Assembly (NCBI GenBank): GCA_045531205.1
Contig: JAZSDN010000050.1
Location: forward strand, 6,407-70,406
Reading direction: 5' to 3'
Origin: Clostridia bacterium
Lineage (GTDB): Bacteria; Bacillota; Clostridia; UMGS1883; UMGS1540
Length of the DNA stretch: 64,000 nucleotides
Shown piece by piece: positions 38,768 to 52,997 of the stretch. A model generated the notes under the pieces. That model saw nothing but the letters and a program-made list of their open reading frames with translations. It was not told the origin of the DNA and made no database searches. The stretch's first letter is position 1. The number at the start of each line of letters is the position of its first letter. A program made the translations under genes and the position numbers.

Positions 38768-40207
38768 ATGAATTATAAAATTGTAAGGTATATTCTGGGG
38801 TCTGTGCTTAAAATAGAAGCATTATGTATGCTTCTCCCCCTTATATGTGCTTTTATTTATAAAGAACAAACAGAAATTTATTCTTTTTTGGCAACAATAA
38901 TATTGTGTGCTGTAATAGGATTTACTTTTGCAAGTCGTGCACCTGAAAATAAATCTATGTACGCAAAGGGTGGCTTTGTTGCTGTAGCTTTAAGCTGGTG
39001 TATTATAAGTGTTTTTGGTGCTCTCCCCTTTGTTTTATCGGGACACATTCCGAATTTTATTGATGCACTTTTTGAAACTGTTTCAGGTTTTACAACCACC
39101 GGAGCCTCTATTCTTAATACGTTGGAAAATATGCCGTATAGCCTGCTATTCTGGCGCAGTTTTACGCATTGGATAGGTGGTATGGGAGTTTTGGTGTTTC
39201 TGGTTGCTATTCTCCCTGTTGCCGGCAGCGACAATTTCTTTTTAATGAAGGCTGAAAGCCCGGGTCCTGCCGTAAGCAAGCTTGTTCCTAATGTGCGTTC
39301 AACCGCAAAAATTTTATATTTAATATATATGGCTTTTACGCTTGTTGAAATTGTTCTTCTTTTATTAGGAGGAATGACTCTGTTTGAAGCATTGACTCTT
39401 TCCTTCGGTACTGCAGGAACCGGCGGTTTTGCTATTCTTGATTCCGGTATTGCAGATTATTCATCATATTCACAAATAATTATAACAATGTTTATGATTA
39501 TTTTCGGCGTTGACTTTGCAGTTTATCATTTAATTTTAATTAAAAAAGCAAACTATGCATTTAAGTCAAATGAAGTAAGATGGTATTTAGGAATAATTTT
39601 GTCTGCAATAATAATTATAAGTATTGATTCTTTTGGATTTTTTGGTAATGTTTTTGAAACTGTAAAGCATAGTGCGTTTCAGGTAGCATCAATTATTACT
39701 ACAACAGGGTACTCGACCTACGATTTTAATACCTGGAACTCCCTTTCCAAAACAATTCTGGTTATACTAATGTTTATTGGTGCTTGTGCCGGAAGTACCG
39801 GTGGTGGTATTAAAGTTTCAAGAATTATTATTCTTATAAAAAGTGTTATAAAAGAAATTAAACTTGCTGTACATCCTAAAGCAACTGTAAAAGTAAGTAT
39901 GAACGGAAAACTTGTTGAACACGAAACTGTACGTGCTATAAATACTTTTATTGCTGCATATCTTGCTATTTTTGCTGCATCTTTGTTGATTATAAGTATT
40001 GATAATTTTGATTTTACAACAAACTTTACAGCAGTAGCCGCAACTTTAAATAATATAGGTCCAGGGCTTTCTTTGGTTGGTCCTGCAAGTAATTTTTCAT
40101 TGTTCTCGCCTTTGTCCAAAATTGTATTGATTTTAGATATGCTTATAGGAAGACTTGAAATTTTCCCGATTTTATTATTACTTTCTCCATATACTTGGAA
40201 AAAATAA
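38768..40207 (+). CDS. trkH: TrkH family potassium uptake membrane protein
   Basis: 479 aa. Repeated selectivity-filter-like ...GFTTTGAS..., ...TAGTGGF..., ...TTTGYST..., ...GSTGGGIK.... Confidence 0.93.
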   Translation: MNYKIVRYILGSVLKIEALCMLLPLICAFIYKEQTEIYSFLATIILCAVIGFTFASRAPENKSMYAKGGFVAVALSWCIISVFGALPFVLSGHIPNFIDALFETVSGFTTTGASILNTLENMPYSLLFWRSFTHWIGGMGVLVFLVAILPVAGSDNFFLMKAESPGPAVSKLVPNVRSTAKILYLIYMAFTLVEIVLLLLGGMTLFEALTLSFGTAGTGGFAILDSGIADYSSYSQIIITMFMIIFGVDFAVYHLILIKKANYAFKSNEVRWYLGIILSAIIIISIDSFGFFGNVFETVKHSAFQVASIITTTGYSTYDFNTWNSLSKTILVILMFIGACAGSTGGGIKVSRIIILIKSVIKEIKLAVHPKATVKVSMNGKLVEHETVRAINTFIAAYLAIFAASLLIISIDNFDFTTNFTAVAATLNNIGPGLSLVGPASNFSLFSPLSKIVLILDMLIGRLEIFPILLLLSPYTWKK

Positions 40208-40216
40208 TTTACAAAA

Positions 40217-40251
40217 AAGAGCTGTAAAAAATTATTTTTTTACAGCTCTTT
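40217..40251. terminator. Bidirectional rho-independent terminator (trkH on one side, epimerase operon on the other)
   Basis: AAGAGCTGTAAAAA-ATTAT-TTTTTACAGCTCTT with flanking A and T runs. Confidence 0.7.
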
Positions 40252-40262
40252 TCTTATATCTT

Positions 40263-41147
40263 TTAATAATTCATATATTTTTTCAACATATTCTTTTCAA
40301 AATTCAACAGATATTTTGCTTCTTCGTCAATTCTTTTTTCCGAAATGGAATCAATTAAATTGCGGTATACATGTATATCCCTGCCTACTTCTCCTCCTTC
40401 CATAACAAACGGTTCTGAGACTATTCTACCTCTATAGTTTATATCGGCAAGAGCTTTAAATATCTCGTCCCAATCAAGATGTCCTCTTCCAGGTGCTGTA
40501 CGATTATTTTCACCTGTATGAAAACTTGTAAGTTTATCTCCCACAAGTCTTATTGCATCACCTATATTATTTTCTTCAATATTCATATGATATGTGTCAA
40601 GAAGCACACCAATATTTGGGCTATCTATTTCTTCTGTATACATAAGAGCTTCTGCTGCAGTGTTAATAAGACAAGTTTCAAAACGGTTAACAGCTTCAAC
40701 ACAGTATGTAACTCCATTATCTTCGGCAGTTTTGATAATTTCTTTCATACTTTTAATGCTTTGTTCCCAATATGGACGTTTATCCCCCTGATAATTATCT
40801 GGAGTCCCCCATCCTGCATAGCTTACACCAGACAGTAATGTGCCATTCATAAACCCTATTCTTTCAACTATTCTTTTTAAATAATCAACTCCGCCAAGTC
40901 TTATTTTTTCATTCAGAGAGGATACATCATAATTTCTGTCAAGGCCAAGGCTGTATGTTAGTTCAATATTATATTCTTCGGCTAACTTAACTAAATCTTT
41001 CATGTGTTCTTTACTCATTTCAAGCAAAGGTTGTGCCTGAAATTCAAGAACATCAAACCCTATCTCGGATGCCTTTTTTATATATTTTTTATGGTCAGCA
41101 TCCCAGTTTTTCTCCCAAAAATTCATAAAAATACCAAACTTATTCAT
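40263..41147 (-). CDS. Ketose 3-epimerase (D-psicose/D-tagatose 3-epimerase family, xylose-isomerase-like TIM barrel)
   Basis: 294 aa. N-terminus MNKFGIFMNFWEKNWDADHKKYIKKASEIGFDVLEF parallels the DTE/DPE family N-terminus (…GIYYxYWExxWxxDxxxYIxKxxxLGFDxLE…). ...VEAVNRFE..., ...LLDTYHMNIEE... and ...VSEPF... metal-ligand regions are present. Confidence 0.8.
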   Translation of the reverse strand: MNKFGIFMNFWEKNWDADHKKYIKKASEIGFDVLEFQAQPLLEMSKEHMKDLVKLAEEYNIELTYSLGLDRNYDVSSLNEKIRLGGVDYLKRIVERIGFMNGTLLSGVSYAGWGTPDNYQGDKRPYWEQSIKSMKEIIKTAEDNGVTYCVEAVNRFETCLINTAAEALMYTEEIDSPNIGVLLDTYHMNIEENNIGDAIRLVGDKLTSFHTGENNRTAPGRGHLDWDEIFKALADINYRGRIVSEPFVMEGGEVGRDIHVYRNLIDSISEKRIDEEAKYLLNFEKNMLKKYMNY

Positions 41148-41163
41148 TTTATCTTACTCCTTA

Positions 41164-42564
41164 TTATAAAACATCTATATCGTATCCAAGATATTTCACA
41201 AGCGCTTCCTTCACACATTCTGACCATTCTCCTTTTGCAATGGCAACATGGTGTTTGTATCCGTTTTCGCACATATACTTAAATACATTTTTAAGATTAT
41301 CTTTTTCAAAAACAATACCTGTTCCAAAAAACTCTTTGTCAAACTTATCTTCTGTCAATGTGCCATTAGTTGTAAATCCATAAAGTTTTCCATTTTCGGT
41401 TTTAATGCTTGCAACTGTAACCTTTCCTGATTTTATTTTTCCGTTAAGAATTCCAACTCCGGTTCCTTCTCCGTAAGATTTTTTAAACATAAGATGTTCA
41501 TTTATAAAAGTATCATTTTCAAAGAATGAATTTGGAACTGCCGAGCAATGAAACATAATGACTTTATTTTCTTCATTTCCGTAATTATTGTTTACATCCA
41601 AAAGCATAACAGGATGATTTGAGGCTAAAGTTAACGCATACATCATAACAGCATTGTTAACATCAAGTTCACATGCGGCAGGTATTCCTTTTTCATTCAT
41701 ATCACTCAAAATAAGACAAGGTGCTATATTATACTGTGTAACAAATTCGTCCCAGCATCTTACTGCCATAGCATCAAGAGAATAGTCCTTAACCAATTTA
41801 TCTACTGCTACACCAAGCTTTGCAATATTTGTAAGCTTTTCTTCAGAATAACTTCCAAAAGATGTAACAGAAGAATAATATCTTTTTTTCTCATCTAATT
41901 CGGTTTTGTCAACTCTTTCCATTAAATCAAATATATACGATAAATCTATTGATTCAACATTTATATTTTTGTTTTGCAATGCCACTTCATCTGTACGTAC
42001 AGTTTTAAAAGCAGTTGTTCTAGCTCCTAACGTTCCAATGTTAACATTTCTCATTCCTTTAACAATTCTGCATATTGCAGCAAAGTTTTTTAAGTCTTTT
42101 GCAAAAGCTTCATCAAGAGGTGAAACTGCCATTTTTTCTGTTAAAGTGAATTTAATATTGCATTGACGCAAAAGATTACACATAGCAAATTTTCCGCACA
42201 CAGCATCTCTTCTTTGTGAAAAATCCATCTTCCCTATTTCGTCAGGATATGCTTGAACTAAAATTGGTACACTTACATTTTTAAATGCTTCTGCCGCACC
42301 ATTTTCATCCGAAAAGTTCGGCATACATAAAATTATACCGTCAAACCTTCCCTTGTTATTTTCTAAAAAATCTTTGAACAAACGTCCTTCTTCTCTTGTT
42401 TCTACCGCACCGTATCTTGTTAAATTTTTATCCATACAAATATAACTAAAACCATTATCGACTACAGCTTTTATCATTTCTTCTCTGGCTTTCGCTATAA
42501 CTTCTCCTGGAAAAAAACCTCTGTTTCCAAAAAATAATGCGAATGTAATTTCTATTTTCCTCAA
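41164..42564 (-). CDS. L-fucose/L-arabinose isomerase family protein (COG2407-type, substrate unknown)
   Basis: 466 aa. Family-typical features (...GARTTAFKTVR..., ...ACELDVNNAVMM..., ...MFHCSAVP...). Forms an operon with the epimerase. Confidence 0.72.
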   Translation of the reverse strand: MRKIEITFALFFGNRGFFPGEVIAKAREEMIKAVVDNGFSYICMDKNLTRYGAVETREEGRLFKDFLENNKGRFDGIILCMPNFSDENGAAEAFKNVSVPILVQAYPDEIGKMDFSQRRDAVCGKFAMCNLLRQCNIKFTLTEKMAVSPLDEAFAKDLKNFAAICRIVKGMRNVNIGTLGARTTAFKTVRTDEVALQNKNINVESIDLSYIFDLMERVDKTELDEKKRYYSSVTSFGSYSEEKLTNIAKLGVAVDKLVKDYSLDAMAVRCWDEFVTQYNIAPCLILSDMNEKGIPAACELDVNNAVMMYALTLASNHPVMLLDVNNNYGNEENKVIMFHCSAVPNSFFENDTFINEHLMFKKSYGEGTGVGILNGKIKSGKVTVASIKTENGKLYGFTTNGTLTEDKFDKEFFGTGIVFEKDNLKNVFKYMCENGYKHHVAIAKGEWSECVKEALVKYLGYDIDVL

Positions 42565-42602
42565 ATTTCTCCCTCCTTTTTATATATCTTACATTGCCTT
42601 TT

Positions 42603-42618
42603 TCACTATTTATAGTGA
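42603..42618. promoter_or_regulatory. Perfect 16-bp palindrome in the divergent promoter region
   Basis: TCACTATTTATAGTGA (7-bp arms, 2-bp centre), between the isomerase operon start (42564) and the PocR-AraC gene start (42717). Confidence 0.3.
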
Positions 42619-42716
42619 CTTTCTTGTTAAAAATAAGCACTATCTTACTTTTTTATTTTGCTAATATTGATTTTATTTGTTTTATTGTGTTAATATAAAA
42701 ACAAGGAGTGATATAT

Positions 42717-43565
42717 ATGATCTATAGTTTTGATAAAATAAAACTGCATAATATGTTTAAAGATTTTTACACTCTTTTAAAAATAACAATAAGTATTTGG
42801 GACTCGGATTTTAATCAGTTACTTTTTTATCCAAATCCCATGCCTTCAATATGTGCAAAAATAAAATCGTCGCCAACAGGCAAACAAAAATGTCTGGAAT
42901 CTGATATAAACGCCTGCAAAAAAGCTGCTTTAATAAAAAAACCTTATACCTTTACATGTCATGCAGGTCTTGTTGATACTGCTTTTCCGATTTATTATAA
43001 CGACGAAATAATTGCCTACATTATGTTTGGACAACTGCGCGATGTAGAAAATAAATTATCTACCATAGAAAATGTAAAAATTTTATGTAAGAAATATGGT
43101 TTAGATGAAAAAAGTATAGATAAATATTATAATGATTTACCGTTGCTTAATCATAATCAAATAAATGCCATTATACATCTATTTGAAATGTGTATTCCTT
43201 ATTTTTACACAAGTGAAGCGATAAAATTTGAAGAAAATATGCTTGCTTCAGAAATAGATAACTATATATCGCAAAACCTTTCTTCCTCTTTATCTCTTGA
43301 ACAATTAACTAAAAAATTTATGATTTCGACAAACGAATTATATCAGATATCACACAAATTTTTTGGCACTTCAATAAAAGACTATATAATTCAAAAAAGA
43401 ATTATCAAAGCGAAACACTATCTTGCAACAACTAATTTACCTGTTTCTGAAATAAGTATTAAAATTGGATATAATGATTACAACTATTTTATCCGCACCT
43501 TTAAAAATCGAACAGGGTACACTCCGCTTTCATACAGAAAAAATTTTCCGCTTAACACTTTGTAA
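42717..43565 (+). CDS. AraC family transcriptional regulator with an N-terminal PocR sensory domain
   Basis: The track ORF starts at the GTG at 42708. The ATG at 42717 has AAGGAG 8 nt upstream. PocR-like Cys pattern (...PSICAKIKSSPTGKQKCLESDINACKKA...TFTCHAGL...) and a C-terminal HTH_AraC (...IGYNDYNYFIRTFKNRTGYTPLSYRK). Confidence 0.85.
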   Translation: MIYSFDKIKLHNMFKDFYTLLKITISIWDSDFNQLLFYPNPMPSICAKIKSSPTGKQKCLESDINACKKAALIKKPYTFTCHAGLVDTAFPIYYNDEIIAYIMFGQLRDVENKLSTIENVKILCKKYGLDEKSIDKYYNDLPLLNHNQINAIIHLFEMCIPYFYTSEAIKFEENMLASEIDNYISQNLSSSLSLEQLTKKFMISTNELYQISHKFFGTSIKDYIIQKRIIKAKHYLATTNLPVSEISIKIGYNDYNYFIRTFKNRTGYTPLSYRKNFPLNTL

Positions 43566-43572
43566 AACATAT

Positions 43573-43605
43573 AAAAACTCACCTATATTTTGTAGGTGAG
43601 TTTTT
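43573..43605. terminator. Bidirectional terminator between convergent regulator and activase genes
   Basis: AAAAACTCACCTA-TATTTTG-TAGGTGAGTTTTT. Confidence 0.7.
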
Positions 43606-43664
43606 AATCTTTATACATAATAACATTTTATCTTACTTTTCTATATATGTAATAAGACAACAGG

Positions 43665-44573
43665 TTAAACAAAATAGCAGCTTATATTGCATTTTTCATT
43701 AAGTATTGAACAGATTTTTTTCATTTCGCCATCTGTTTGTGAGCTGTCTGCGAATTTCGTGTATTCTTTTCCTGCAATCTTATATTTTGACTCAGCAAGA
43801 TTGTTGTATTTTAATAATTCAATCTCTTTTATTCCTTTTCCGAAGGTTTTTATGATTTCAGCAAAGGCATAAATATCATCATCAGAATCATTCACTCCGG
43901 GTATTACAGGAATTCGTAAAATGATATTACTGTGTTTGTTTGATAATTTAGTGATATTTTCGATTATCAGTCTGTTGTCCTGCCCTGTAAATTTGCGATG
44001 TTTTTCGGAATTTGGAATTTTCAAATCAGCAAAGAACAAGTCTACAAAGGGTAACACCTCTTCAACCTTTTCCCAAGGAACGAAAAAAGCACTTTCAATT
44101 GCTGTGTGAATCCCATGTTCTTTACACATTCTTGTAACTTCTGCCACAAAGTCTGAATACAACAAACACTCTCCGCCCGAAAAGGTTACTCCTCCGCCTG
44201 AGGAAATATAATAGTGAGCGTCTTTTTTAATTTCTTCAAAAAGTTCCGGAGCAGTCTTTTCCTCACCACACAGGCTAAGTGCAAGCGAAGGACAGCTTAC
44301 CGCGCATTTGCCGCAAGCTGCGCAACCTTCGCGCAGAAAAGCCATATCATTTCCCAGTATTTTATGATGTTGTGGACAAAGCTCAATACATTTACCGCAA
44401 TGAATACATTTTGTAGGTATGTAAAGAATTTGCTTTTTTGAAGACAATGTTTCCGGATTATGACACCATTTGCATCTAAGGGCGCATCCTTTGAAATATA
44501 CAACTGTTCTGACGCCCGGTCCATCATGCAAAGAACCTCTTGATATATTTGTAATTGTTGCACTTACAGACAT
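43665..44573 (-). CDS. Glycyl-radical enzyme activating protein (radical SAM) with a two-ferredoxin-motif insert
   Basis: 302 aa. Radical SAM CALRCKWCHNPE, plus CIHCGKCIELCP and CAACGKCAVSCP. The start overlaps the stop of the upstream GRE by 10 nt. Confidence 0.92.
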   Translation of the reverse strand: MSVSATITNISRGSLHDGPGVRTVVYFKGCALRCKWCHNPETLSSKKQILYIPTKCIHCGKCIELCPQHHKILGNDMAFLREGCAACGKCAVSCPSLALSLCGEEKTAPELFEEIKKDAHYYISSGGGVTFSGGECLLYSDFVAEVTRMCKEHGIHTAIESAFFVPWEKVEEVLPFVDLFFADLKIPNSEKHRKFTGQDNRLIIENITKLSNKHSNIILRIPVIPGVNDSDDDIYAFAEIIKTFGKGIKEIELLKYNNLAESKYKIAGKEYTKFADSSQTDGEMKKICSILNEKCNISCYFV

Positions 44574-47200
44574 GAATGCTTTGTCCTTCCGATAATATGA
44601 TTCTGAAGTTCAGGAGAAAGCAGGTTAAATTTTTGACTGAATCCAGAAACTCTTACTGCAAGGTTATTATATTTTTCCGGATATTTTTGTGCATCAATAA
44701 GAGTGTCTGCATCAATGGTATTAAACTGTACATTTTCCAGACCTTTTTCGCTGCTTGCAATTAAAATATCCGCAAGCATGGGTATATTTTTGTCAGTAAA
44801 CAATTTTGGATCAACTTCAACAATTGCCGAAGTTGTACCCGGAGTGCGTTTGGTTGGCAGTTTAGCAATTGAGTTAAGCAAAGCTGTTAAGCCGTTAAAA
44901 TCACGTCCCTGCATTGGAGAAACACTATAAGCTATAATTTCGCCTTTGCGTCTTCCGTCAGGAGTTGCGGCACTTTCTCGTCCGTAGTCAACCATCCAAA
45001 GGAATGTAAATGGTTGTGCATGGAATGAAAGTCCGTATTTTTCAGACAATTCTTCAAGATAATCGCAAGCAGTATTTACTATATCAACCGCAATTGAGTC
45101 TACACTTTCAATATCATTACCAAATTTTGCAGCTTTATTTATAAATTCAAGCCTTATACTTTCATCCGGAAAATTGTTAACTAATATATCTTTTAATTCT
45201 TCAAGTGTATATTTTTGTTGTATGTACACAAATTCACGAATAACCTCAAGTGAGTCGGCAAGGTTTGGTATTCCGCCAAGCATAATTTGGTAATAATCAT
45301 ACTTCGCTCCTGCATCATTAAAGTCTTTTCCTGTTTCAATACAACCGTCTGTCAGTAACGACTTGTAAGGTCTTGGGCTGTTGATAACAGAACAATCCCT
45401 GTGTTTTTTTACAGAAGAACAGGTCAAATCAAGAATATGATAAATTTGTTTTTTGACCGAATCATAAAACTTGTTATAGGTGTCAAACGAATTAAGCTCA
45501 CCGGTTTTTACACCTGTGTTAAAATCAGGATACATCATACTGCTGCCGTTACATAGCACATACTCAACTGCTTTAAGCAAATTGGTTTCTCCTGTTACGG
45601 CATGAGGATTGGATTTTCCCGGTATAACAGTTTCAACACATCCAATTTGAGTGTAGTCGCAGGCATCCTCATAAGATATTCCTTTGCTTGTAAGTGCAGG
45701 AATCATTACATCATCATTAAAGAAGAACGGAACACCTTTCTGGACATGACCTACCACCTCAAGGGCACGTTTTATAAATTCCTTTTCCGTATTTTTTGAG
45801 TAACGCACTGACATGCAACGTATAAAATCAAGCTGTTCGGTAGCATCGAGCATCATATAAGAAAGTTCATTGACCTGACTGCTTCCATCGGGAGAAGTCC
45901 CGCCGACACACGACTGCTGAACATCGTAATTTAAGTATAGTTTAATCCACAAGCAGCATATCAGTTCAAAAGCATCTTCTTTTGTCAAAATGCCTTTTTC
46001 AATATCCGCTTTGTAATATGGATAAAGTATCTGATCAAGTCTGCCGAGTGAATTTGCGTTTATATGGTCCTCCCATGTGTTGATGATATGCGCAAACCAT
46101 AAAGACTGTACTGCTTCTCTGAAGTTTGAAGCAGGATTTTCGGGAACATTTTCACACGCACTTATAATATAATCCAAATCCTTTTCAAGATAAAGTTCGT
46201 CACCAGATTCTTTAATTCTTTGAGCTTCTTTTGCATATTTTTTGCCCATTTCACAAGCTGCTACGCAAATACTTTTCATTGAAGAATAAAGCGGATTTGT
46301 TCCGTTTTTCTTTTCGTGCGCTATAACTTCGTCAAGCAGGCCTTTAAACCCAAGCTTCAATACTTTTTCATAGTTTATTACACTGTGATTAGAGTCGGTA
46401 CATCTTCCTATTGCAGCCCATTCTCCGCACGAATCCTGCTCGTCTTTTGTAAGAATCGGCGATACATATTCAAGAAAATTAGGCTCTTGTTTAGTCAGCT
46501 CAAAGTATTTTTCCAAATCGCTATCACTGATACCATTTAATTTGGCTAACCTGCGATTTTCTTCCGTGTCATCAGGTGAAAACCATTCATCGTATTTAGA
46601 GTCAGGAAAATTAAAACCAACAATTAGTTCTCCAGGAATAATTACAGGAGTAAATTTATCTAAAACATTAATAGCTCTTGCCGCGCTGATTTCTGTATTC
46701 GAAAGATTCTTTTTTGCTGCTTCAGCCATCCCAATATAAGAGTAAACTTTATTTTGCATACAATAATAATCTTCATAGTCGTTTGTGCCAACAACTAAGC
46801 GACGCAAAGCTTCACATCTGTCAGTCAGAGAATACATAGTAATTCTTTTCCTTTCATAATAAAATTGAGTTTCTTTTGCTTGCTTTTTATATTCTCTGGG
46901 CAAGCAACCGAATTCTGCCAAAAAGGCTTTGTTGAACCCGCCTAACGTTTCATATCCATAAGCTATTGCTACATCGGTTATTTTTTTGCCAGAGATTATA
47001 TCAATTGCAGCCAATTGGAGACGGTAATGTCGAACATATTTTACAAAAGACTTTCCGGTATATTTATGAAATTTCGAGCAAAAATGCCATTTAGAATACC
47101 CAAACTGATTTGCAACATCTGATAGGTCTAAACGCTTCTCGATATTATTATGAATATACTTTAAAACTTCATACACAACACCATCTCCTTTCATTTTCAT
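44564..47200 (-). CDS. Fusion protein: N-terminal AraC-type HTH DNA-binding domain plus a full glycyl radical enzyme (C-x-E thiyl-loop class)
   Basis: One uninterrupted 878-codon ORF. Residues about 10-110 are HTH_AraC (…LSDVANQFGYSKWHFCSKFHKYTGKSFVKYVRHYRL…ITDVAIAYGYETLGGFNKAFLAEFGCLPREYKK). From M122 there is a GRE core with IGCVETVIPGK and C-terminal RVSGFSQKFNLLSPELQNHIIGRTKH. The exact start is uncertain (ATG at 47200, or GTG at 47176 after AAAGGAG). Confidence 0.88.
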   Translation of the reverse strand: MKMKGDGVVYEVLKYIHNNIEKRLDLSDVANQFGYSKWHFCSKFHKYTGKSFVKYVRHYRLQLAAIDIISGKKITDVAIAYGYETLGGFNKAFLAEFGCLPREYKKQAKETQFYYERKRITMYSLTDRCEALRRLVVGTNDYEDYYCMQNKVYSYIGMAEAAKKNLSNTEISAARAINVLDKFTPVIIPGELIVGFNFPDSKYDEWFSPDDTEENRRLAKLNGISDSDLEKYFELTKQEPNFLEYVSPILTKDEQDSCGEWAAIGRCTDSNHSVINYEKVLKLGFKGLLDEVIAHEKKNGTNPLYSSMKSICVAACEMGKKYAKEAQRIKESGDELYLEKDLDYIISACENVPENPASNFREAVQSLWFAHIINTWEDHINANSLGRLDQILYPYYKADIEKGILTKEDAFELICCLWIKLYLNYDVQQSCVGGTSPDGSSQVNELSYMMLDATEQLDFIRCMSVRYSKNTEKEFIKRALEVVGHVQKGVPFFFNDDVMIPALTSKGISYEDACDYTQIGCVETVIPGKSNPHAVTGETNLLKAVEYVLCNGSSMMYPDFNTGVKTGELNSFDTYNKFYDSVKKQIYHILDLTCSSVKKHRDCSVINSPRPYKSLLTDGCIETGKDFNDAGAKYDYYQIMLGGIPNLADSLEVIREFVYIQQKYTLEELKDILVNNFPDESIRLEFINKAAKFGNDIESVDSIAVDIVNTACDYLEELSEKYGLSFHAQPFTFLWMVDYGRESAATPDGRRKGEIIAYSVSPMQGRDFNGLTALLNSIAKLPTKRTPGTTSAIVEVDPKLFTDKNIPMLADILIASSEKGLENVQFNTIDADTLIDAQKYPEKYNNLAVRVSGFSQKFNLLSPELQNHIIGRTKHSCL

Positions 47201-47254
47201 TATAGCAAAACCTAAATAATATTTCTACTCCAAAATTGTGTTTTTCAAAATGTT

Positions 47255-47286
47255 AAAAATGCTCGCCTGAAACAACAGACGAGCAT
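47255..47286 (-). terminator. Terminator hairpin belonging to the spoIVB 3' remnant
   Basis: The minus strand reads ATGCTCGTCTG-TTGTTT-CAGGCGAGCAT followed by TTTTTAA. This is an 11-bp stem with one G-U pair, in the same position relative to the remnant stop codon as the terminator of the intact spoIVB. Confidence 0.55.
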
Positions 47287-47291
47287 TCATC

Positions 47292-47417
47292 TTAATTTTT
47301 CTCTGATTCTGCTAACATATTTTCAATAAATATTCCATACCCACGCGTGGGATCGTTTACGAATACGTGAGTGACTGCACCGATGAGCTTGCTATTTTGG
47401 ACAATGGGGCTGCCCGA
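47292..47417 (-). pseudogene. Remnant of a spoIVB 3' end (last 41 codons plus stop), orphaned
   Basis: Minus-strand translation is [41 protein letters not shown], against intact SpoIVB ...[42 protein letters not shown] at 51115-51243. Homology stops abruptly upstream of the SGSP codons, and there is no start codon or N-terminal part. Confidence 0.8.
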
Positions 47418-47448
47418 TAGGTGTGATGTCAATATGGGACAACAAATT

Positions 47449-48282
47449 CTACGCTTTTTTAACTAATATATTTGTTTTTGCTCTGATATAATTAATTATT
47501 TCATTAATCTGTTCATCAGTTTGCATTGAAATTTCAAGCGGTTGTTTTCCTAATGCCAAGTACTTATTTTCGCCAAAAGCGTGATAAGGCTCTATTTCAA
47601 TCCCTATGATTGATGTAAGTGTATTTGCAAGTTCGCATATTTTGTCATAGTTTTCTTTTCTGTCATTATAGCCGGGAATTACAGGACAACGGAGAATAAT
47701 ATCTTTTTTTAACTCATTTAATAAATATAAGTTTTTCTTTATTAAAATATTGTCCACTCCTGTATAGGTCTTATGTAATTCAGGATTACTTTCCTTGAAA
47801 TCAAACAAAAACAAATCGGTGTATTCTGCAATTTGTTTTATTTTATCGCTATCGGCAAAGCCACAGGTTTCTATAGCAGTGTGCAGGTCATTTTCTTTAG
47901 CTTTTTTTAAAATGTCCAATGCAAACTCAAACTGAAACAACGGCTCACCACCCGAAAGTGTAATTCCGCCACCGGAATTTTTATAAAATTCATAGTCTTT
48001 CATAACTTCGTCAATAACATAATCTGACAATACTGTTTTTCCGCAGATTTCCTTCGCATTATTAAAACATATAAAATCCGAATTGTCAGCTGTTAAGTTT
48101 CGACATCTTCCACAGCCCGAACATTTATCCGGATAAAACATGATTTGTTTTTCTTGCGTCTGACTTTCAGGATTATGACACCATTCACAACGCAAAGGAC
48201 AGCCTTTGAAAAAAACAGTTGTGCGTATTCCCGGACCATCATTAACACAAAATTTTTGAATGTTAAATATTTCACCGGTCAT
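47449..48282 (-). CDS. Glycyl-radical enzyme activating protein (radical SAM), reduced auxiliary-cluster insert
   Basis: 277 aa. [12 protein letters not shown] radical SAM motif and only one CxxCxxC (CSGCGRC) in the insert region. Starts 2 nt after the GRE stop. Confidence 0.9.
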
Positions 48283-48284
48283 TT

Positions 48285-50234
48285 TTATTTCTCCTGCACT
48301 GCTCGTTCAATTACAGCGTCCTGAATTTTTTCATTCAATGTTGTAAACTGTGTACTGTAACCACTGATTTTAACAATAATATCCGTGTGTTCTGACGGAT
48401 TTTGTTTGGCTTCTTCTAACAATTTTGCATCTATAGTATTAACAGCAAGATGAAAACCGCCGGCTTCAAAAAATGTCTTTATTAGAGGTGTAAGTACACT
48501 GCTTTTTTCAATATCTTTTTTATTCAAACTTATCATAACAGGGCATCCGTTGGGAAAATATTTGGCAGAGATATTTGCGCATGACATCAGAGTTGATGTT
48601 AAGGTGCTTTTGTGAGGCGTTGCGCAAGGCATCACTCCGTAGGATAACAGTTCTCCTTTTTTTCTTCCGTTAACCATTCCGCTACAATCCCGCTGCCATA
48701 TATCCGCAGTAAAACGAAACAGTGCCGGCGAAGAAAGAACATTATCATCTATAGGATATTTTTGAATTACTTTTCCTATAAACTCGGTTATATCTTTAGC
48801 TAACTGATTACTTTCTTCGCTGTTGGAACCGTAATAAGTTTTTAAGCCTGCTATTTTATTATATAAAGATACATCCTCAAAATCTTTTTCTGCCTGCATC
48901 CTTAGATTTTTAATTGTTGTATGATTTTCGTCAAATACAAGCCTTTTTATAGTGTAAATACTGTCAATTAAAATGCCGATTCCCAAGATATTTATGCCAA
49001 ACAGGTATTTTTCCCGGTTTAATACACAGTTTGCAAATGGTGATACTGCGTTTCTATCTTGATTTGCAATACTCTTAAATTCAGGAAGTAAAGAGTTTGC
49101 ATAATAAAATTCAAAATAATTTTTGTATGCATTAAGAAAGTCTTTGAAAGAAGAATAATCAGACTTTTGCTCCAAAAACTCTTTGAAGGAATCATATAGG
49201 TTAACGGCTGCGGCAACTGTGTTTGAAAACGAGCCTTGGGGAGCTGGTTCGTAACAGCCAACAATTCCGTAATCCATTGCTCTCTTATCATCAATTCCCA
49301 ATTTTTTTAAACCTTCAATAATAGTATCATCATTGAAATATGCCGGCATACCGCTTCCGTTTAAAACCAGCCGAGTTGCTTTATTTAAAACATCGGTACT
49401 TGTTATTTTTGATACTCTCAGGGCAATGGATGGCTGGCGCATACTGATTTGTGTTTGAGCTTCAATAAATAACGATGTCAATTCATTTTCAATATCTCCA
49501 CCCACGGTCAGCATGCACGACTCATCACCCTCGGAATTTTTTATGTAAAAGCACATAATAAGTTCTAACGCTTCTTCCGGCGTAAGAATACCTTTTTCGA
49601 TATCATTTTTATAATATGGATACAGGTATGAATCTGCTCTGCCTAAAGATATTGCAGCGCCGCCCGCTTCTGTATATAAAAAGCATTGAATAAACCATAC
49701 AAGCTGTAACGCCTGACGAAAACTCACAGGAGGGTTTTCCGATATGAATTCACAGTCATTTGCGATGTTTAAAAGTCTTTCTTTATCTTCATTCTGCGAT
49801 AAAACATAAGCTTTTCTTGCAGTGTCAGCATAATTTTTTATGTAATTTGAAAAAGCCTTTAACGTATTTACCAAAGCTGTTTTATTAGAGTTTTTATTGA
49901 CTTCATTTATTTTCCCTTTAATTCCTTTTTCCAAGAAATCCTGAAAATCTGCAATGAAGTGCCCTCTATTCTGAGGTTTTACAGTTTCGCCAAGAGACCT
50001 TTGCCATTGCCAATGCCAGTTTGTTCCTACAATGTATTCCTTTTCATAAATTTCGGTTGAAAAGTTTTCTGAAAAATACTGATAGAAACCACTGTATAAA
50101 AGCCCTTTATCTTCTTCAACGTTTTTGTTTGAAATATATTGCTGATAAAGATTACATAAATGCTTTTTGTGTTGCTCTCTTTTTTCTTCAAACATAGCAA
50201 GGTGCTGTTTTTTTAAAAAAATTGTGTTATTCAT
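48285..50234 (-). CDS. Short glycyl radical enzyme homologue (about 649 aa)
   Basis: The track ORF starts at the GTG at 50255. The ATG at 50234 (MNNTIFL...) follows GGAAAGGAG. Thiyl loop VGCYEPAPQG and C-terminal glycine loop IVKISGYSTQFTTLNEKIQDAVIERA. Shares DIEKGILTxEEAxELI and FNDD motifs with the upstream GRE. Confidence 0.85.
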   Translation of the reverse strand: MNNTIFLKKQHLAMFEEKREQHKKHLCNLYQQYISNKNVEEDKGLLYSGFYQYFSENFSTEIYEKEYIVGTNWHWQWQRSLGETVKPQNRGHFIADFQDFLEKGIKGKINEVNKNSNKTALVNTLKAFSNYIKNYADTARKAYVLSQNEDKERLLNIANDCEFISENPPVSFRQALQLVWFIQCFLYTEAGGAAISLGRADSYLYPYYKNDIEKGILTPEEALELIMCFYIKNSEGDESCMLTVGGDIENELTSLFIEAQTQISMRQPSIALRVSKITSTDVLNKATRLVLNGSGMPAYFNDDTIIEGLKKLGIDDKRAMDYGIVGCYEPAPQGSFSNTVAAAVNLYDSFKEFLEQKSDYSSFKDFLNAYKNYFEFYYANSLLPEFKSIANQDRNAVSPFANCVLNREKYLFGINILGIGILIDSIYTIKRLVFDENHTTIKNLRMQAEKDFEDVSLYNKIAGLKTYYGSNSEESNQLAKDITEFIGKVIQKYPIDDNVLSSPALFRFTADIWQRDCSGMVNGRKKGELLSYGVMPCATPHKSTLTSTLMSCANISAKYFPNGCPVMISLNKKDIEKSSVLTPLIKTFFEAGGFHLAVNTIDAKLLEEAKQNPSEHTDIIVKISGYSTQFTTLNEKIQDAVIERAVQEK

Positions 50235-51018
50235 AAATAACAAACTCCTTTCCACAATACCCTAAATTTGCCGAGATTTCAGCGGAAGCATTTCTTATTA
50301 GATCAAGTTTTTCATTAATTAAAGAGTCAATATCGTCATATAGCGTCAGGCTTGAAACACCTATAGTTGCCACCACATTTCCTGTATAGTCAAAAATAGG
50401 TACTGCAATACAAATTATGCCTTTGGCAAACTCTTCATTATCAATAGCAAAACCTGCTTTTTTTATCTTATAAGCTTCAATAATAAAACTATCAAAATCC
50501 GTAATGGTATTTTCTGTTCTTTTGTCAACCGGTATATTAAAGTAATTCTTTATCTCATCTGTATCTGAATAACTTAAAAGAATCTTACCGGGGGCAGAAC
50601 AGTTAAGTGGGTATTCTCCACCTATACACCCATTAATTCTGACTTCCTTTGTGGAATCATAATGCAAAAGATAAAGGACGTTTCTTTCGTTTTTAACCCC
50701 AAGATAGACAGAATCACCAAGCTCATTATTTAACTGTTCTATGTAAGGAGTTGCAATTTTTGCAATGCTGTTATTATTAACATAACCTGATATAAGTGAA
50801 AAGGGACGGAGCGTTAATCTGTATTTTTTTTGAGTATTATCACTCATATAAATCCAATTTTTCTCGAGCAAAGCTTCCAACACCCTTGAAACAGCATTTT
50901 TATTTATATTAAGAGCATTACTTATATCAGCAATTCCTATTTCAGAATTTTTACTTGCAAAAAATTCAATTATTTCCAAAGCGTAATCTACAGCAGGAGC
51001 TTTAGACAACTTTATCAC
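50227..51018 (-). CDS. IclR family transcriptional regulator
   Basis: 263 aa. N-terminal wHTH (...ALEIIEFFASKNSEIGIADISNALNINKNAVSRVLEALLEKNWI...) and a C-terminal IclR effector domain. The likely true start is the TTG at 51009, 6 nt after GAGGTG. The stop overlaps the GRE start by 8 nt. Confidence 0.9.
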   Translation of the reverse strand: MIKLSKAPAVDYALEIIEFFASKNSEIGIADISNALNINKNAVSRVLEALLEKNWIYMSDNTQKKYRLTLRPFSLISGYVNNNSIAKIATPYIEQLNNELGDSVYLGVKNERNVLYLLHYDSTKEVRINGCIGGEYPLNCSAPGKILLSYSDTDEIKNYFNIPVDKRTENTITDFDSFIIEAYKIKKAGFAIDNEEFAKGIICIAVPIFDYTGNVVATIGVSSLTLYDDIDSLINEKLDLIRNASAEISANLGYCGKEFVIYE

Positions 51019-51046
51019 CTCATAATATATTTATTCTACAATTATA

Positions 51047-51075
51047 AGTATATCACGTAAAGATATATATGTCAA
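51047..51075 (-). promoter_or_regulatory. Sigma-A type promoter of the IclR-GRE-activase cassette
   Basis: The minus strand reads TTGACA (51075-51070), a 17-nt spacer ending in TGA, then TATACT (51052-51047). It directly abuts the spoIVB terminator. Confidence 0.6.
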
Positions 51076-51110
51076 CAAAAATGCTCACTTATATAAAACA
51101 AGTGAGCATT
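51076..51110 (-). terminator. Rho-independent terminator of spoIVB
   Basis: The minus strand reads ATGCTCACTT-GTTTTATAT-AAGTGAGCAT followed by TTTTTGTT. Confidence 0.7.
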
Positions 51111-51114
51111 TATC

Positions 51115-52086
51115 TTATTTGTTTTTCTCTGCTTCAGTTAACATATTCTCTATAAATATCCCATAACCTCTTGTTGGATCATTCACAAATACGTGTGTCA
51201 CAGCTCCGATGAGCTTTCCGTTCTGAACTAAAGGTGACCCCGACATACCTTGGACAATTCCACCCGTTATCGAAAGAAGTTTTGGGTCTGTAACTTTTAT
51301 TATCATATTTTTATTTTCTTCATAATTTTTATTTAAAATCTTTTCAATTAAAACTGTATATTTTTGTACACCTTCTCCTAAAACATCCGCATATATAAAA
51401 GCATTTCCTTCCTTCACTTCGTCTGATGTTGAAGTAAAAACAGTTTCTCCTTCACTTTTTTTAAGCAGTGTTCCGAATAATCCGCTTTTTGAATTTTTGT
51501 TTATTATGCCACTTTTAACATTTAAAAAATCCCCTTGCAAACCACCGGGGCTCCCCTCTTTCCCTCTTATTACATACATATTTTCACAAAAACGTATATC
51601 GCCCGAATTTCCTGAAGGCATTATGCCTGTTTCTGTATCTTCTACCTTGTGCCCTAACGCAGCAAATTTTAAGGTTTCGGGTTCGATATAAGTTATAGTT
51701 CCTATCCCGGCTATACTGTCTCTTACCCATGCGCCTATTTTATATTTATAAGCATCGTCATAAAATACAGGTGTAACCTTTTTGGTTAAAATTTTATTTT
51801 CTCTCTTTATTCCTAAATTAAGATTTTTTCCTTCTGACTGTTCAACAAGCTTGCTGAATTCATCACTCTTTGATATCTTTTTGCCGTTTACTAAATAAAT
51901 TATATCTCCCTTTTTAATTCCTGATGCCTTGGCAGGAGATATATTTTTTCCATTTGAAACTATATCAGAAAATCCAACCACCAATACACCTTCAAAATAC
52001 ATGGATATTCCTATGGTGTTTCCTCCTAATATTACTTGTTTTGGTTCGCTCTCTTCTGTTGCTTCAATATTGTTTTGGCCGCACAA
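51115..52086 (-). CDS. spoIVB: SpoIVB peptidase (S55), stage IV sporulation signalling protease
   Basis: PDZ-like region (...GIKKGDIIYLVNGKKI...) and the serine protease motif GMSGSPL. The coordinates are the track ORF (TTG start, no SD). The reading frame stays open upstream to 52173 and encodes a signal/TM segment, so the true start is probably near 52157/52158 (see findings). Confidence 0.88.
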   Translation of the reverse strand: MCGQNNIEATEESEPKQVILGGNTIGISMYFEGVLVVGFSDIVSNGKNISPAKASGIKKGDIIYLVNGKKISKSDEFSKLVEQSEGKNLNLGIKRENKILTKKVTPVFYDDAYKYKIGAWVRDSIAGIGTITYIEPETLKFAALGHKVEDTETGIMPSGNSGDIRFCENMYVIRGKEGSPGGLQGDFLNVKSGIINKNSKSGLFGTLLKKSEGETVFTSTSDEVKEGNAFIYADVLGEGVQKYTVLIEKILNKNYEENKNMIIKVTDPKLLSITGGIVQGMSGSPLVQNGKLIGAVTHVFVNDPTRGYGIFIENMLTEAEKNK

Positions 52087-52217
52087 AAGAGAAAGCAGGG
52101 TTACTGTCAGTAAAAGTGCAAAAAATATTTTTAATAAATTAACACTTTTTTTTGCAATATAAAACCACCCCCCTTAATTTAATTTTTACAGAGAGCGGTT
52201 TTTATATTCATTGCAAT

Positions 52218-52997
52218 TTATCGGTATTCTGTTAAAGATTTAAATGTATAGCCTTGGCTTTTTGCATCTTTTATTACTCTGTCAAGAGCTTTTGCGTTAT
52301 CGGCAGATACTGCGTGAAGCAATATAACTGCACCATTATGTAAGCCTTTCATTATGTTATTATATGCTGCTTCCTCTCCTATTGGATTTTCTGCTTCCCA
52401 GTCTTTGTATGCAAAGCTCCAGAAACAACTTATAAAGCCCATTTCGTTTGCCTTTTTTAAAACTTTTTCGTTGTACTCTCCCATTGGAGGACGGAAAAAT
52501 TTCATTTTACTGCCAAGTTCATTTTCAAATTTTTCCGAAAGAGTCAAAATTTCTTTTTCCATTTCTTCTTCCGAAATTTTTGGCATTGAAGGATGATTCC
52601 ACGTATGATTTCCTACAATATGACCTTCATCATGCATTCTTGCTACCAAATCAAAGCTGCGAGTAAAATAATCTCCTGTAATAAAAAATGCTGCCGTAAC
52701 CTCATTTTCTTTTAGTGTGTCCAGAATATCGTCTGTGTATCCGTTTTCGTAACCTTCGTCGAATGTAAGATATAAAGTTTTTTCTTCCTTATTTCCCATG
52801 TAAATGCAATTATTTTTTGTCATCATTTCTGTTTGAGATGCTGTAAATTCAGGTCCTTCCTCTGTTGGTCTGAATCCCCAACCAAAAACATCTGTTTGAT
52901 AAGATATTTCCTTTGAGGTTTCTGTTACATTATCTGTGCACGATGTAAAAAGTAAAACACTTAAAAGTAAAATAAATATTTTTTTAATAATCTCCAC
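52218..52997 (-). CDS. Polysaccharide deacetylase (NodB domain) lipoprotein, PdaA-like
   Basis: 259 aa. Lipobox LLFTSC. ...LTFDEGYENGYT... (TFDD-type motif), ...GNHTWNHP... and ...ILLHAVS... NodB motifs. Sporulation-gene neighbourhood. Confidence 0.8.
   Translation of the reverse strand: MEIIKKIFILLLSVLLFTSCTDNVTETSKEISYQTDVFGWGFRPTEEGPEFTASQTEMMTKNNCIYMGNKEEKTLYLTFDEGYENGYTDDILDTLKENEVTAAFFITGDYFTRSFDLVARMHDEGHIVGNHTWNHPSMPKISEEEMEKEILTLSEKFENELGSKMKFFRPPMGEYNEKVLKKANEMGFISCFWSFAYKDWEAENPIGEEAAYNNIMKGLHNGAVILLHAVSADNAKALDRVIKDAKSQGYTFKSLTEYR

Follow-up and report, generated by a model that had tools for sequence, protein, structure and literature searches.

Here we describe a glycyl radical enzyme (GRE) that carries an AraC/XylS-type helix-turn-helix (HTH) DNA-binding domain at its N terminus. 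The gene lies in a 64-kb stretch of DNA from a Clostridia bacterium (assembly GCA_045531205.1, contig JAZSDN010000050.1), hereafter the window; all coordinates are positions in this window, in which the fusion gene, denoted HTH-GRE, and the gene for its activating enzyme both lie on the minus strand. Comparison with homologues makes it virtually certain that HTH-GRE is a real and conserved fusion, and regulator and enzyme are likely united in this one gene. The locus reads as a three-part module, which would consist of a promoter with an operator-like box, the HTH-GRE gene and a translationally coupled activase. In the explanation that we favour, and to which we give an even chance as a whole, the fusion protein would regulate its own promoter through the box, the gene would yield two isoforms, the enzyme part would be a competent catalyst of the 1,2-eliminase type, and the coupled activase would complete a self-contained module.

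One gene encodes an AraC-type domain and a complete glycyl radical enzyme

Positions 44564–47200 form a single open reading frame (ORF) of 878 codons with no interruption. Pfam profiles place HTH_AraC at residues 16–56 (33.8 bits against a curated cut-off of 26.6) and HTH_18 at residues 30–107 (E = 4.6e-19; 68.9 bits against 33.6), followed by PFL-like at residues 158–737 (E = 1.7e-123; 414 bits) and Gly_radical at residues 759–859 (E = 8e-22; 78 bits). The product that would begin at M122 is colinear with full-length stand-alone GREs (the B12-independent glycerol dehydratase 1r8w from residue 92 onward aligns with this product from residue 84) and contains both hallmarks of the class: a thiyl loop, IGCVETVIPGK (residues 519–529, 45614–45646), with Cys521 and Glu523, and a glycyl motif, RVSGFSQ (residues 850–856, 44633–44653), with Gly853. 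The downstream activase shows a CALRCKWC motif (CX3CX2C) together with two ferredoxin-type CX2CX2CX3C motifs, and its ORF overlaps that of the GRE by 10 nucleotides (nt; 44564–44573). An initial annotation, made from the sequence alone, had described just such a gene: one 878-codon ORF with an AraC-type head, a complete GRE from M122 with both motifs intact, and a dedicated activase with two ferredoxin-type motifs whose start overlaps the GRE stop by 10 nt. All of this is borne out by the coordinates, the motifs, the Pfam domains and the match of the activase to its NCBIfam family (Table 1).

The start codon, given there as 47200, appears slightly misplaced. ATG 47200 overlaps the −10 hexamer TATAAT (47204–47199) of the sole good promoter-like site upstream, a second ATG (47194) lies at or ahead of the expected transcript start, and the first eight residues of the ORF have an occupancy of only 0.09 among 120 aligned homologues. 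Most homologues are about 870 amino acids long and start at the position of GTG 47176, which sits 8 nt past the Shine–Dalgarno (SD) sequence AAAGGAG. Because ATG 47200 falls in the −10 box and residues 1–8 are mostly absent elsewhere, the true start is probably GTG 47176, which would give a product of 870 rather than 878 amino acids.

The fusion is conserved among gut Clostridia

When 5.8 billion proteins were searched, the architecture HTH_18, PFL-like, Gly_radical was shared by nearly all of the top 120 clusters (65–92% identity); the exceptions were P0057 and P0082, which are N-terminally shortened products, and P0085, whose first residue is the internal Met itself. A profile search that set out from distant members returned fusion proteins for 120 of its 120 best matches, and the pooled homologue set came to 188 full-length fusion sequences. 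A library clustered at 50% identity held at least five further fusion clusters at 38–48% identity, the clusters reaching down to 38–41%. The fusion was found in 18 species-representative genomes, all of them metagenome-assembled genomes (MAGs) from Oscillospiraceae and other Clostridia and labelled Congzhengia, Ructibacterium, Faecousia, Oscillospiraceae or plain Clostridia/Clostridiales. Those with a named source derive from ruminant and other animal guts, and human-gut metagenome contigs also have the fusion. The junction is continuous in nearly all homologues, which come from independent assemblies and several genera, and the linker sequence YYER(R/K)xxTM is conserved among them. At two loci (L015, 7577–9951; L018, 7502–10114) the gene is split into two ORFs within the GRE part, with the HTH junction whole; these breaks reflect either a pseudogene or an assembly error.

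The architecture is already present in databases, where pipelines have named it automatically; one member, for example, bears the Joint Genome Institute (JGI) name 'pyruvate-formate lyase/AraC-like DNA-binding protein'. The novelty suggested by the initial annotation thus stands in one respect, as a full-text literature search, whose coverage excluded most subscription journals, found no paper describing an AraC/HTH-GRE fusion, and falls in another, as the fusion is not rare but forms a large, auto-labelled family. New in this work are the extent of the family, the selection acting on its HTH domain, the promoter box, the dual-start signature and the decayed deep branches.

The DNA-binding domain is under strong purifying selection

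The N-terminal domain aligns at residues 4–101, end to end, with the structures of RamA, Rob, SoxS and MarA (E = 3e-15 to 4e-11) and has in common with them the GYSKWH start of recognition helix 3. It misses the NCBIfam equivalog cut-offs for all four (RamA, 72 against 180 bits; Rob, 63 against 380; SoxS, 60 against 174; MarA, 47 against 202–250) and, on sequence grounds, is of the MarA/SoxS/Rob/RamA subtype without being an orthologue of any of these regulators. The two recognition helices, SKWHFCSKF (residues 36–44) and GGFNKAF (residues 87–93), are made up of residues that are invariant or nearly so within the family. At positions that contact bases in MarA, the domain has Cys/Ser where MarA has Gln45/Arg46, and in helix 6 it has GGFNKAF where MarA has QQTLTRTF. 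An AlphaFold model has a predicted local distance difference test (pLDDT) score of 80–90 in the HTH domain and of 82.8 overall.

Ratios of nonsynonymous to synonymous substitution rates (dN/dS, Nei–Gojobori method, seven pairs with unsaturated dS) are 0.03–0.07 for the HTH domain versus 0.055–0.106 for the GRE part, and the mean frequency of the top residue over 121 sequences is 0.75 in the HTH domain versus 0.61 in the N-terminal third of the GRE. The HTH domain is under strong purifying selection, and the single polypeptide thus contains enzyme and DNA-binding domains that are both selected for. We regard the HTH as probably a functional DNA binder.

A conserved asymmetric box lies in the promoter

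Upstream of the gene, a bipartite box, CACAATTTTGGAGTAG, abuts the −35 element of the promoter, its last three bases being the start of that element. Most of the main-clade promoters examined contain the family consensus C[AG]CAA-N4-(T)GGAGTAG, and in most aligned promoters 20±1 nt separate it from (TGn)TATAAT; box and spacing are kept in relatives down to ~48% identity in the N-terminal region. In 27 machine-aligned promoters, the information content is 2.0–2.2 bits within the box versus 0.1–0.5 bits in its flanks. A strict box pattern matched 39 times in 750 kb of loci, with 33 matches lying 30–150 nt upstream of an HTH-GRE start and the other six being, by estimate, about the number expected by chance. 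The box persists despite differing upstream neighbours (spoIVB, a second activase, a divergent aldo-keto reductase, a thioesterase and hypothetical genes) and was not found upstream of HTH-less sister GRE genes. Within the 64-kb window, CACAATTTTGGAGTAG is the only exact copy, and weaker matches occur at chance level. As for variation, the promoter of locus L019 is without the CRCAA half of the box. The promoter box of locus L004 is the variant GACAACTTTGGACTAT.

The box is asymmetric, with halves about 10 bp apart from centre to centre. At class II promoters, monomeric MarA/Rob-type domains occupy an asymmetric site whose two halves lie about one helical turn apart. Across the loci compared, no other regulator gene is conserved near HTH-GRE, and positions 40000–52500 gave no Rfam match to a riboswitch or leader RNA. 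Given the asymmetry, the spacing of the halves and the lack of another conserved regulator nearby, binding by the protein's own HTH is the simplest reading of the box, and one towards which we lean. The conserved box in turn supports a regulatory role for HTH-GRE: the 870-residue form from GTG 47176 would bind CACAATTTTGGAGTAG as a monomer through its MarA/Rob-type head and so autoregulate the operon.

An internal start probably yields a second, HTH-less product

The residue at position 122 is Met in 120 of 121 aligned sequences, and two stand-alone sister GREs, P0130 and P0131, start around it, at positions that match residues 121 and 125. All 17 loci of the first set have GA(A/G) AGG A(G/A)A as the codons five to three positions before M122. 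When 16 orthologues (63–99% identity) are placed in a codon alignment, Arg117 is encoded by AGG throughout, a codon that makes up 12% of all Arg codons of these genes. Fourteen Arg columns of this alignment are invariant, and only two are fixed or nearly fixed as AGG: Arg117 and Arg872 (15 of 16). The Arg872 codon is part of the activase SD sequence GGAAGGA and thereby serves as an internal positive control for the SD sequence before M122. Across codons 111–125, dS drops to 0.12–0.67, compared with 0.8–2.0 elsewhere. Two distant lineages devoid of both the internal Met and the coupled activase have CGC, CGT or CGA at both Arg positions. The predicted RNA fold around the internal start is no better than that of shuffled sequences (z = −0.92).

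The fixation of AGG and the low dS indicate that this purine-rich stretch is under selection at the nucleotide level, like the known ribosome-binding site. The initial annotation had considered two products conceivable; the synonymous-site conservation, together with its positive control and the near-invariance of M122, now lends that idea support. It is rather likely that the internal start is used, and a 757-residue HTH-less GRE is probably made beside the 870-residue fusion. This short form from ATG 46837 would be an ordinary GRE that provides the bulk of the catalytic subunits, and it could dimerise with the long form.

The enzyme part resembles eliminases and has a coupled activase

The GRE part shows 24–30% identity to B12-independent glycerol and 1,2-propanediol dehydratases, HypD, CutC and N-methyl-hydroxyproline dehydratase, and its predicted fold matches GRE eliminases (Foldseek E ~1e-42; template modelling score 0.73–0.81). 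Cys521 aligns with Cys433 of glycerol dehydratase and is invariant in 41 relatives, and both GC[VI]E and RV[SC]GF are kept in 177 of the 188 full-length fusions. In glycerol dehydratase, CutC and HypD, the glutamate of the Cys-x-Glu loop acts as the general base. By this loop and by its fold, the GRE part is placed in the 1,2-eliminase class, and we envisage eliminase chemistry on a small polar substrate. All NCBIfam GRE equivalogs are missed; HypD comes closest (358 against 1100 bits), with CutC, HpsG/HpfG, the PflD/YbiW type, the indoleacetate and 4-hydroxyphenylacetate (4-HPA) decarboxylases and PFL relatively lower, and the PFL2-3 subfamily cut-off is missed as well (402 against 678 bits). 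Among the active-site residues of glycerol dehydratase, the equivalent of His164 is kept and D447, H281 and S282 are replaced; these residues gave no substrate assignment for HTH-GRE.

In more than 25 loci, the overlapping activase is the only gene that constantly accompanies HTH-GRE, being present at nearly all main-clade loci. With its SD sequence and ATG inside the 3′ end of the GRE gene, the activase is, as read from the sequence, translationally coupled to it.

Deep-branch relatives and HTH-less sisters

About ten fusion proteins at 38–51% identity have lost the Arg of the RVxG motif. In P0124 (L023/L024), P0126 (L028), P0128 (L029) and P0129 (L030–L032), the motif is replaced by QVFGY, NVSGF, NIYGF and AVSGF, and P0129 also lacks the loop Glu, with GCSG in place of GCxE. 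No activase gene adjoins HTH-GRE on the four deep-branch contigs examined for these proteins. Dockerin and cohesin genes come immediately downstream of P0124, and P0126 precedes two GH78-like genes. The genes on either side of P0129 are unannotated and lie on the other strand, and P0128 sits on a short contig of 3.6 kb with little context. By comparison, the intact-motif relative P0271 has kept its activase and has a box-like sequence, CCCAAAAATGGATTAG, upstream. These patterns suggest that some lineages retained the regulator role while the chemistry decayed, and they make P0124, P0126, P0128 and P0129 candidate GRE-derived pseudo-enzyme regulators. Retention of the HTH in such decayed branches is indirect support for its being a real regulator.

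The HTH-less sister P0131 (40% identical; L104/L105) is preceded by an ORF and followed by genes for an activase and then a FucI_C-like isomerase. The preceding ORF, truncated where the contig ends, resembles by eye the C terminus of a medium-chain dehydrogenase and has no similarity to the HTH; a 'Rosetta stone' search likewise revealed no separate small AraC gene upstream of HTH-less sister GREs. The FucI_C-like protein is only 25% identical to that of the window, which is at most a weak hint of a functional link, and the neighbourhood of P0131 points, though only faintly, towards chemistry on sugars or polyols. A different N-terminal arrangement was seen in P0142 (912 amino acids, from the search at 50% clustering), in which an F5/8 type C (discoidin, galactose-binding-like) domain at residues 123–245 precedes a complete GRE.

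Alternative explanations

Several observations weigh against an autoregulating, two-isoform HTH-GRE. At locus L004 (a GCA_054292425.1 contig; P0107, 67% identical), no activase lies within 10 kb. A co-variation of Gly/Ser before FNKAF with GGAGT/GGACT in the box looked promising in 19 loci and failed once metagenome loci were added, as Ser variants co-occur with GGAGTAG; this was the only test of helix/box co-variation. The box could belong to another factor. Given its TG-extended −10 element, the promoter may work without an activator, so that either sign of regulation is possible. The AlphaFold model comes without an inter-domain error estimate and is uninformative as to whether DNA would be accessible to the HTH within a dimer of the GRE. 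At the internal start, the SD sequence of the window is a weaker variant, AAAGGAAAA, about 11 nt before the ATG, and its conservation could in principle reflect something besides initiation. What we infer, rather than observe, is the binding of the box by the HTH, the sign of regulation, and a transmission of substrate or radical state from GRE to HTH in the manner of Rob or PutA.

Among the alternatives, the one that survives best, albeit as an unlikely one, is that the HTH mainly regulates other genes, for example unlinked catabolic or transport genes, and that a different, unlinked factor binds the box at the HTH-GRE promoter. The failed co-variation test fits this, as does the position of deep-branch fusions beside dockerin/cohesin or GH78-like genes instead of an activase, and it is generally known that Rob, MarA and SoxS govern dispersed regulons. 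However, the box stays with the gene although the surrounding genes differ from locus to locus, the HTH-less sisters are without it, the window holds no second good copy, and no other conserved regulator lies nearby, all of which favours autoregulation.

We consider it quite unlikely that the HTH has been domesticated to a role other than DNA binding, such as activase docking, oligomerisation or localisation, with a single relevant product. The base-contacting positions do differ from those of MarA; yet conservation within the domain is highest in the recognition helices, and a fixed asymmetric box of fitting geometry co-occurs with it. Activase docking in particular is argued against by the deep-branch members, which at the loci examined keep the HTH with no adjoining activase.

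Very unlikely, too, is a pseudo-enzyme sensor, in which the GRE body would bind a ligand without turnover, like the C-terminal domain of Rob. The decayed motifs and missing activases of the deep branches provide a precedent, and the window protein reaches no functional equivalog cut-off. By contrast, Cys, Glu, RVSGF and the coupled activase are intact in the window protein, as they are in 177 of 188 relatives, and its GRE part is under purifying selection; moreover, a pure sensor would have no use for a conserved internal start from which an HTH-less GRE is made. Finally, it is exceedingly improbable that the fusion is an artefact of assembly or of an indel, or that two neighbouring genes have only recently been joined as a pseudo-fusion; as far as the sequence data reach, this reading is rejected: although two related MAG loci (L015 and L018) carry the gene as two ORFs, these splits fall away from the junction, which is unbroken in nearly all of several hundred independent sequences (P0057, P0082 and P0085 excepted) with a conserved linker.

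Autoregulation by HTH-GRE would leave the part played by the GRE body to be considered. That it acts as a signal input, as in the trigger enzyme suggested by the initial annotation, is conceivable, although we doubt it. In the specific form of this idea, which we put forward only tentatively, a transcription factor would have the GRE barrel as its input domain. DNA binding by the HTH would change with the occupancy of the barrel by substrate, or with whether the radical is present or has been lost to oxygen; the proportion of regulatory to purely catalytic subunits would depend on the short isoform, and the pseudo-enzyme sensors of the deep branches would be the end point.

Genomic features and neighbourhood

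Table 1. Features of the HTH-GRE locus, in window coordinates
Feature	Position	Strand	Basis and remarks
GRE-activating radical S-adenosylmethionine (SAM) enzyme	43665..44573	−	NCBIfam TIGR02494, 336.9 bits against 174.35
Activase SD sequence GGAAGGA and ATG, inside the GRE 3′ end	44571..44590 (SD 44590–44584, ATG 44573–44571)	−	Sequence read; SD 10 nt before ATG
GRE body, PFL2/eliminase class	44567..46837	−	Pfam PFL-like and Gly_radical; ~30% identity to known eliminases
Family-specific invariant motif NTWEDHINANSLGRLDQ (NTWEDxINANSxGRLDQ)	46031–46081	−	Homologue conservation
Internal ATG (M122), probable second start for the 757-residue HTH-less GRE	46835..46837	−	Met conservation; starts of sister GREs
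Helical linker, residues 111–121	46838..46870	−	Holds the internal SD-like GAAAGGAAAAG (~46855–46845); modelled as a long helix at lower confidence
AraC/XylS-type DNA-binding domain, residues 9–110, two HTH units	46871..47176	−	Pfam; structure alignments; dN/dS
SD sequence AAAGGAG and GTG start	47174..47191 (SD 47191–47185, GTG 47176–47174)	−	Sequence read; homologue starts
Sigma-70-type promoter	47199..47227 (−35 TAGAAA 47227–47222, 17-nt spacer, TG-extended −10 TATAAT 47204–47199)	−	Scan, 10/12 matches plus TG
Bipartite box CACAATTTTGGAGTAG, candidate site for the protein's own HTH	47225..47240	−	Promoter alignment; pattern scans

On the activase side of the operon, the window contains a D-psicose 3-epimerase gene (40263–41147, minus strand), whose product passes the NCBIfam cut-off, a fucose-isomerase-C-like gene (41164–42564, minus strand) with a weak match to sulfoquinovose isomerase, and beside it an AraC regulator with a PocR sensor (42708–43565, plus strand). 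Positions 40263–43565 probably constitute a rare-sugar operon. The epimerase, the isomerase-like gene and the PocR-type regulator are not conserved with HTH-GRE at other loci, and a functional link to the two sugar-enzyme neighbours was rejected on these grounds.

On the promoter side, HTH-GRE directly follows spoIVB at L005, L012, L015 and L022. In the window and at L001, a second GRE cassette is inserted between the two genes and the spoIVB end is duplicated; in the window, the copy of the spoIVB-like 3′ end (~150 bp, ~80% identical; 47270–47420 versus 51085–51265, both on the minus strand) lies just upstream of the HTH-GRE promoter, is still readable as protein and extends into the first part of the terminator hairpin belonging to that gene. 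The inserted operon (47449–51018, minus strand) encodes an IclR-type regulator (50227–51018), a GRE (48285–50255) and its own activase (47449–48282). This GRE is unusually short, at 656 amino acids, with a GCYE loop, a KISGY motif and a weak YjjI-like match. In the Congzhengia relative L001, the same slot is taken by a different cassette of an AraC-type regulator, a 705-residue GRE and an activase. The interval between spoIVB and HTH-GRE looks like a hot spot for GRE cassettes.

Comparison with known systems

GREs are central to anaerobic gut metabolism, where they act on choline, hydroxyproline, propanediol and sulfonates, and most of their clades are without an assigned substrate. HTH-GRE represents a large and so far uncharacterised clade, found in Clostridia of animal and human guts, that brings with it a built-in regulator and a predicted operator; a reporter for the 16-bp box, or protein–DNA binding, may offer a handle with which to screen for an inducer or substrate. 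If our reading is correct, a radical enzyme would join the few enzymes that also act as transcription factors; if, in addition, the GRE body were the signal input, the cell would read the state of such an enzyme directly at its promoter.

HTH-GRE resembles Rob, MarA, SoxS and RamA in its N-terminal two-HTH domain of ~100 residues with the GYSKWH start of helix 3 and, as in Rob, in the large C-terminal domain that follows. The candidate site is also similar to those of Rob and MarA, being asymmetric, ~16–20 bp long with halves one helical turn apart, and abutting the −35 element like a class II marbox. Nevertheless, the specificity residues differ in both recognition helices, the box is not a marbox in sequence, and its binding is a prediction here; moreover, Rob has a GyrI-like ligand-binding C-terminal domain where HTH-GRE has a radical enzyme of ~760 residues. 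With the PFL2-class eliminases, HTH-GRE shares the fold, the Gly radical motif, the Cys-x-Glu loop, the equivalent of His164 and an activase with two extra ferredoxin-type motifs. It is distinguished from them by its low identity (24–30%), by its own NTWEDxINANS motif and by the N-terminal DNA-binding domain, for which we know of no counterpart in a characterised GRE.

Models for a fused trigger enzyme are provided by PutA (a ribbon-helix-helix (RHH) domain with proline dehydrogenase and pyrroline-5-carboxylate (P5C) dehydrogenase), BirA, NadR and Ada (an AraC-type HTH with methyltransferase domains). In these proteins, as in HTH-GRE, a small DNA-binding domain is attached to a large enzyme, and control of the own operon from the own promoter, which we predict for HTH-GRE, is a further likeness. 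To our knowledge, none of the four involves a glycyl radical enzyme, nor is an internal start giving an isoform without the DNA-binding domain a known feature of PutA or BirA. HTH-GRE would be a clean example of a fusion gene from which a conserved internal start makes two isoforms, one regulatory and one catalytic. Among GREs, the anaerobic (class III) ribonucleotide reductase likewise bears an N-terminal regulatory domain, an ATP-cone (PMC11226230); unlike the HTH, however, the ATP-cone is an allosteric nucleotide-binding domain and not a DNA-binding one, and the reductase belongs to another enzyme clade.

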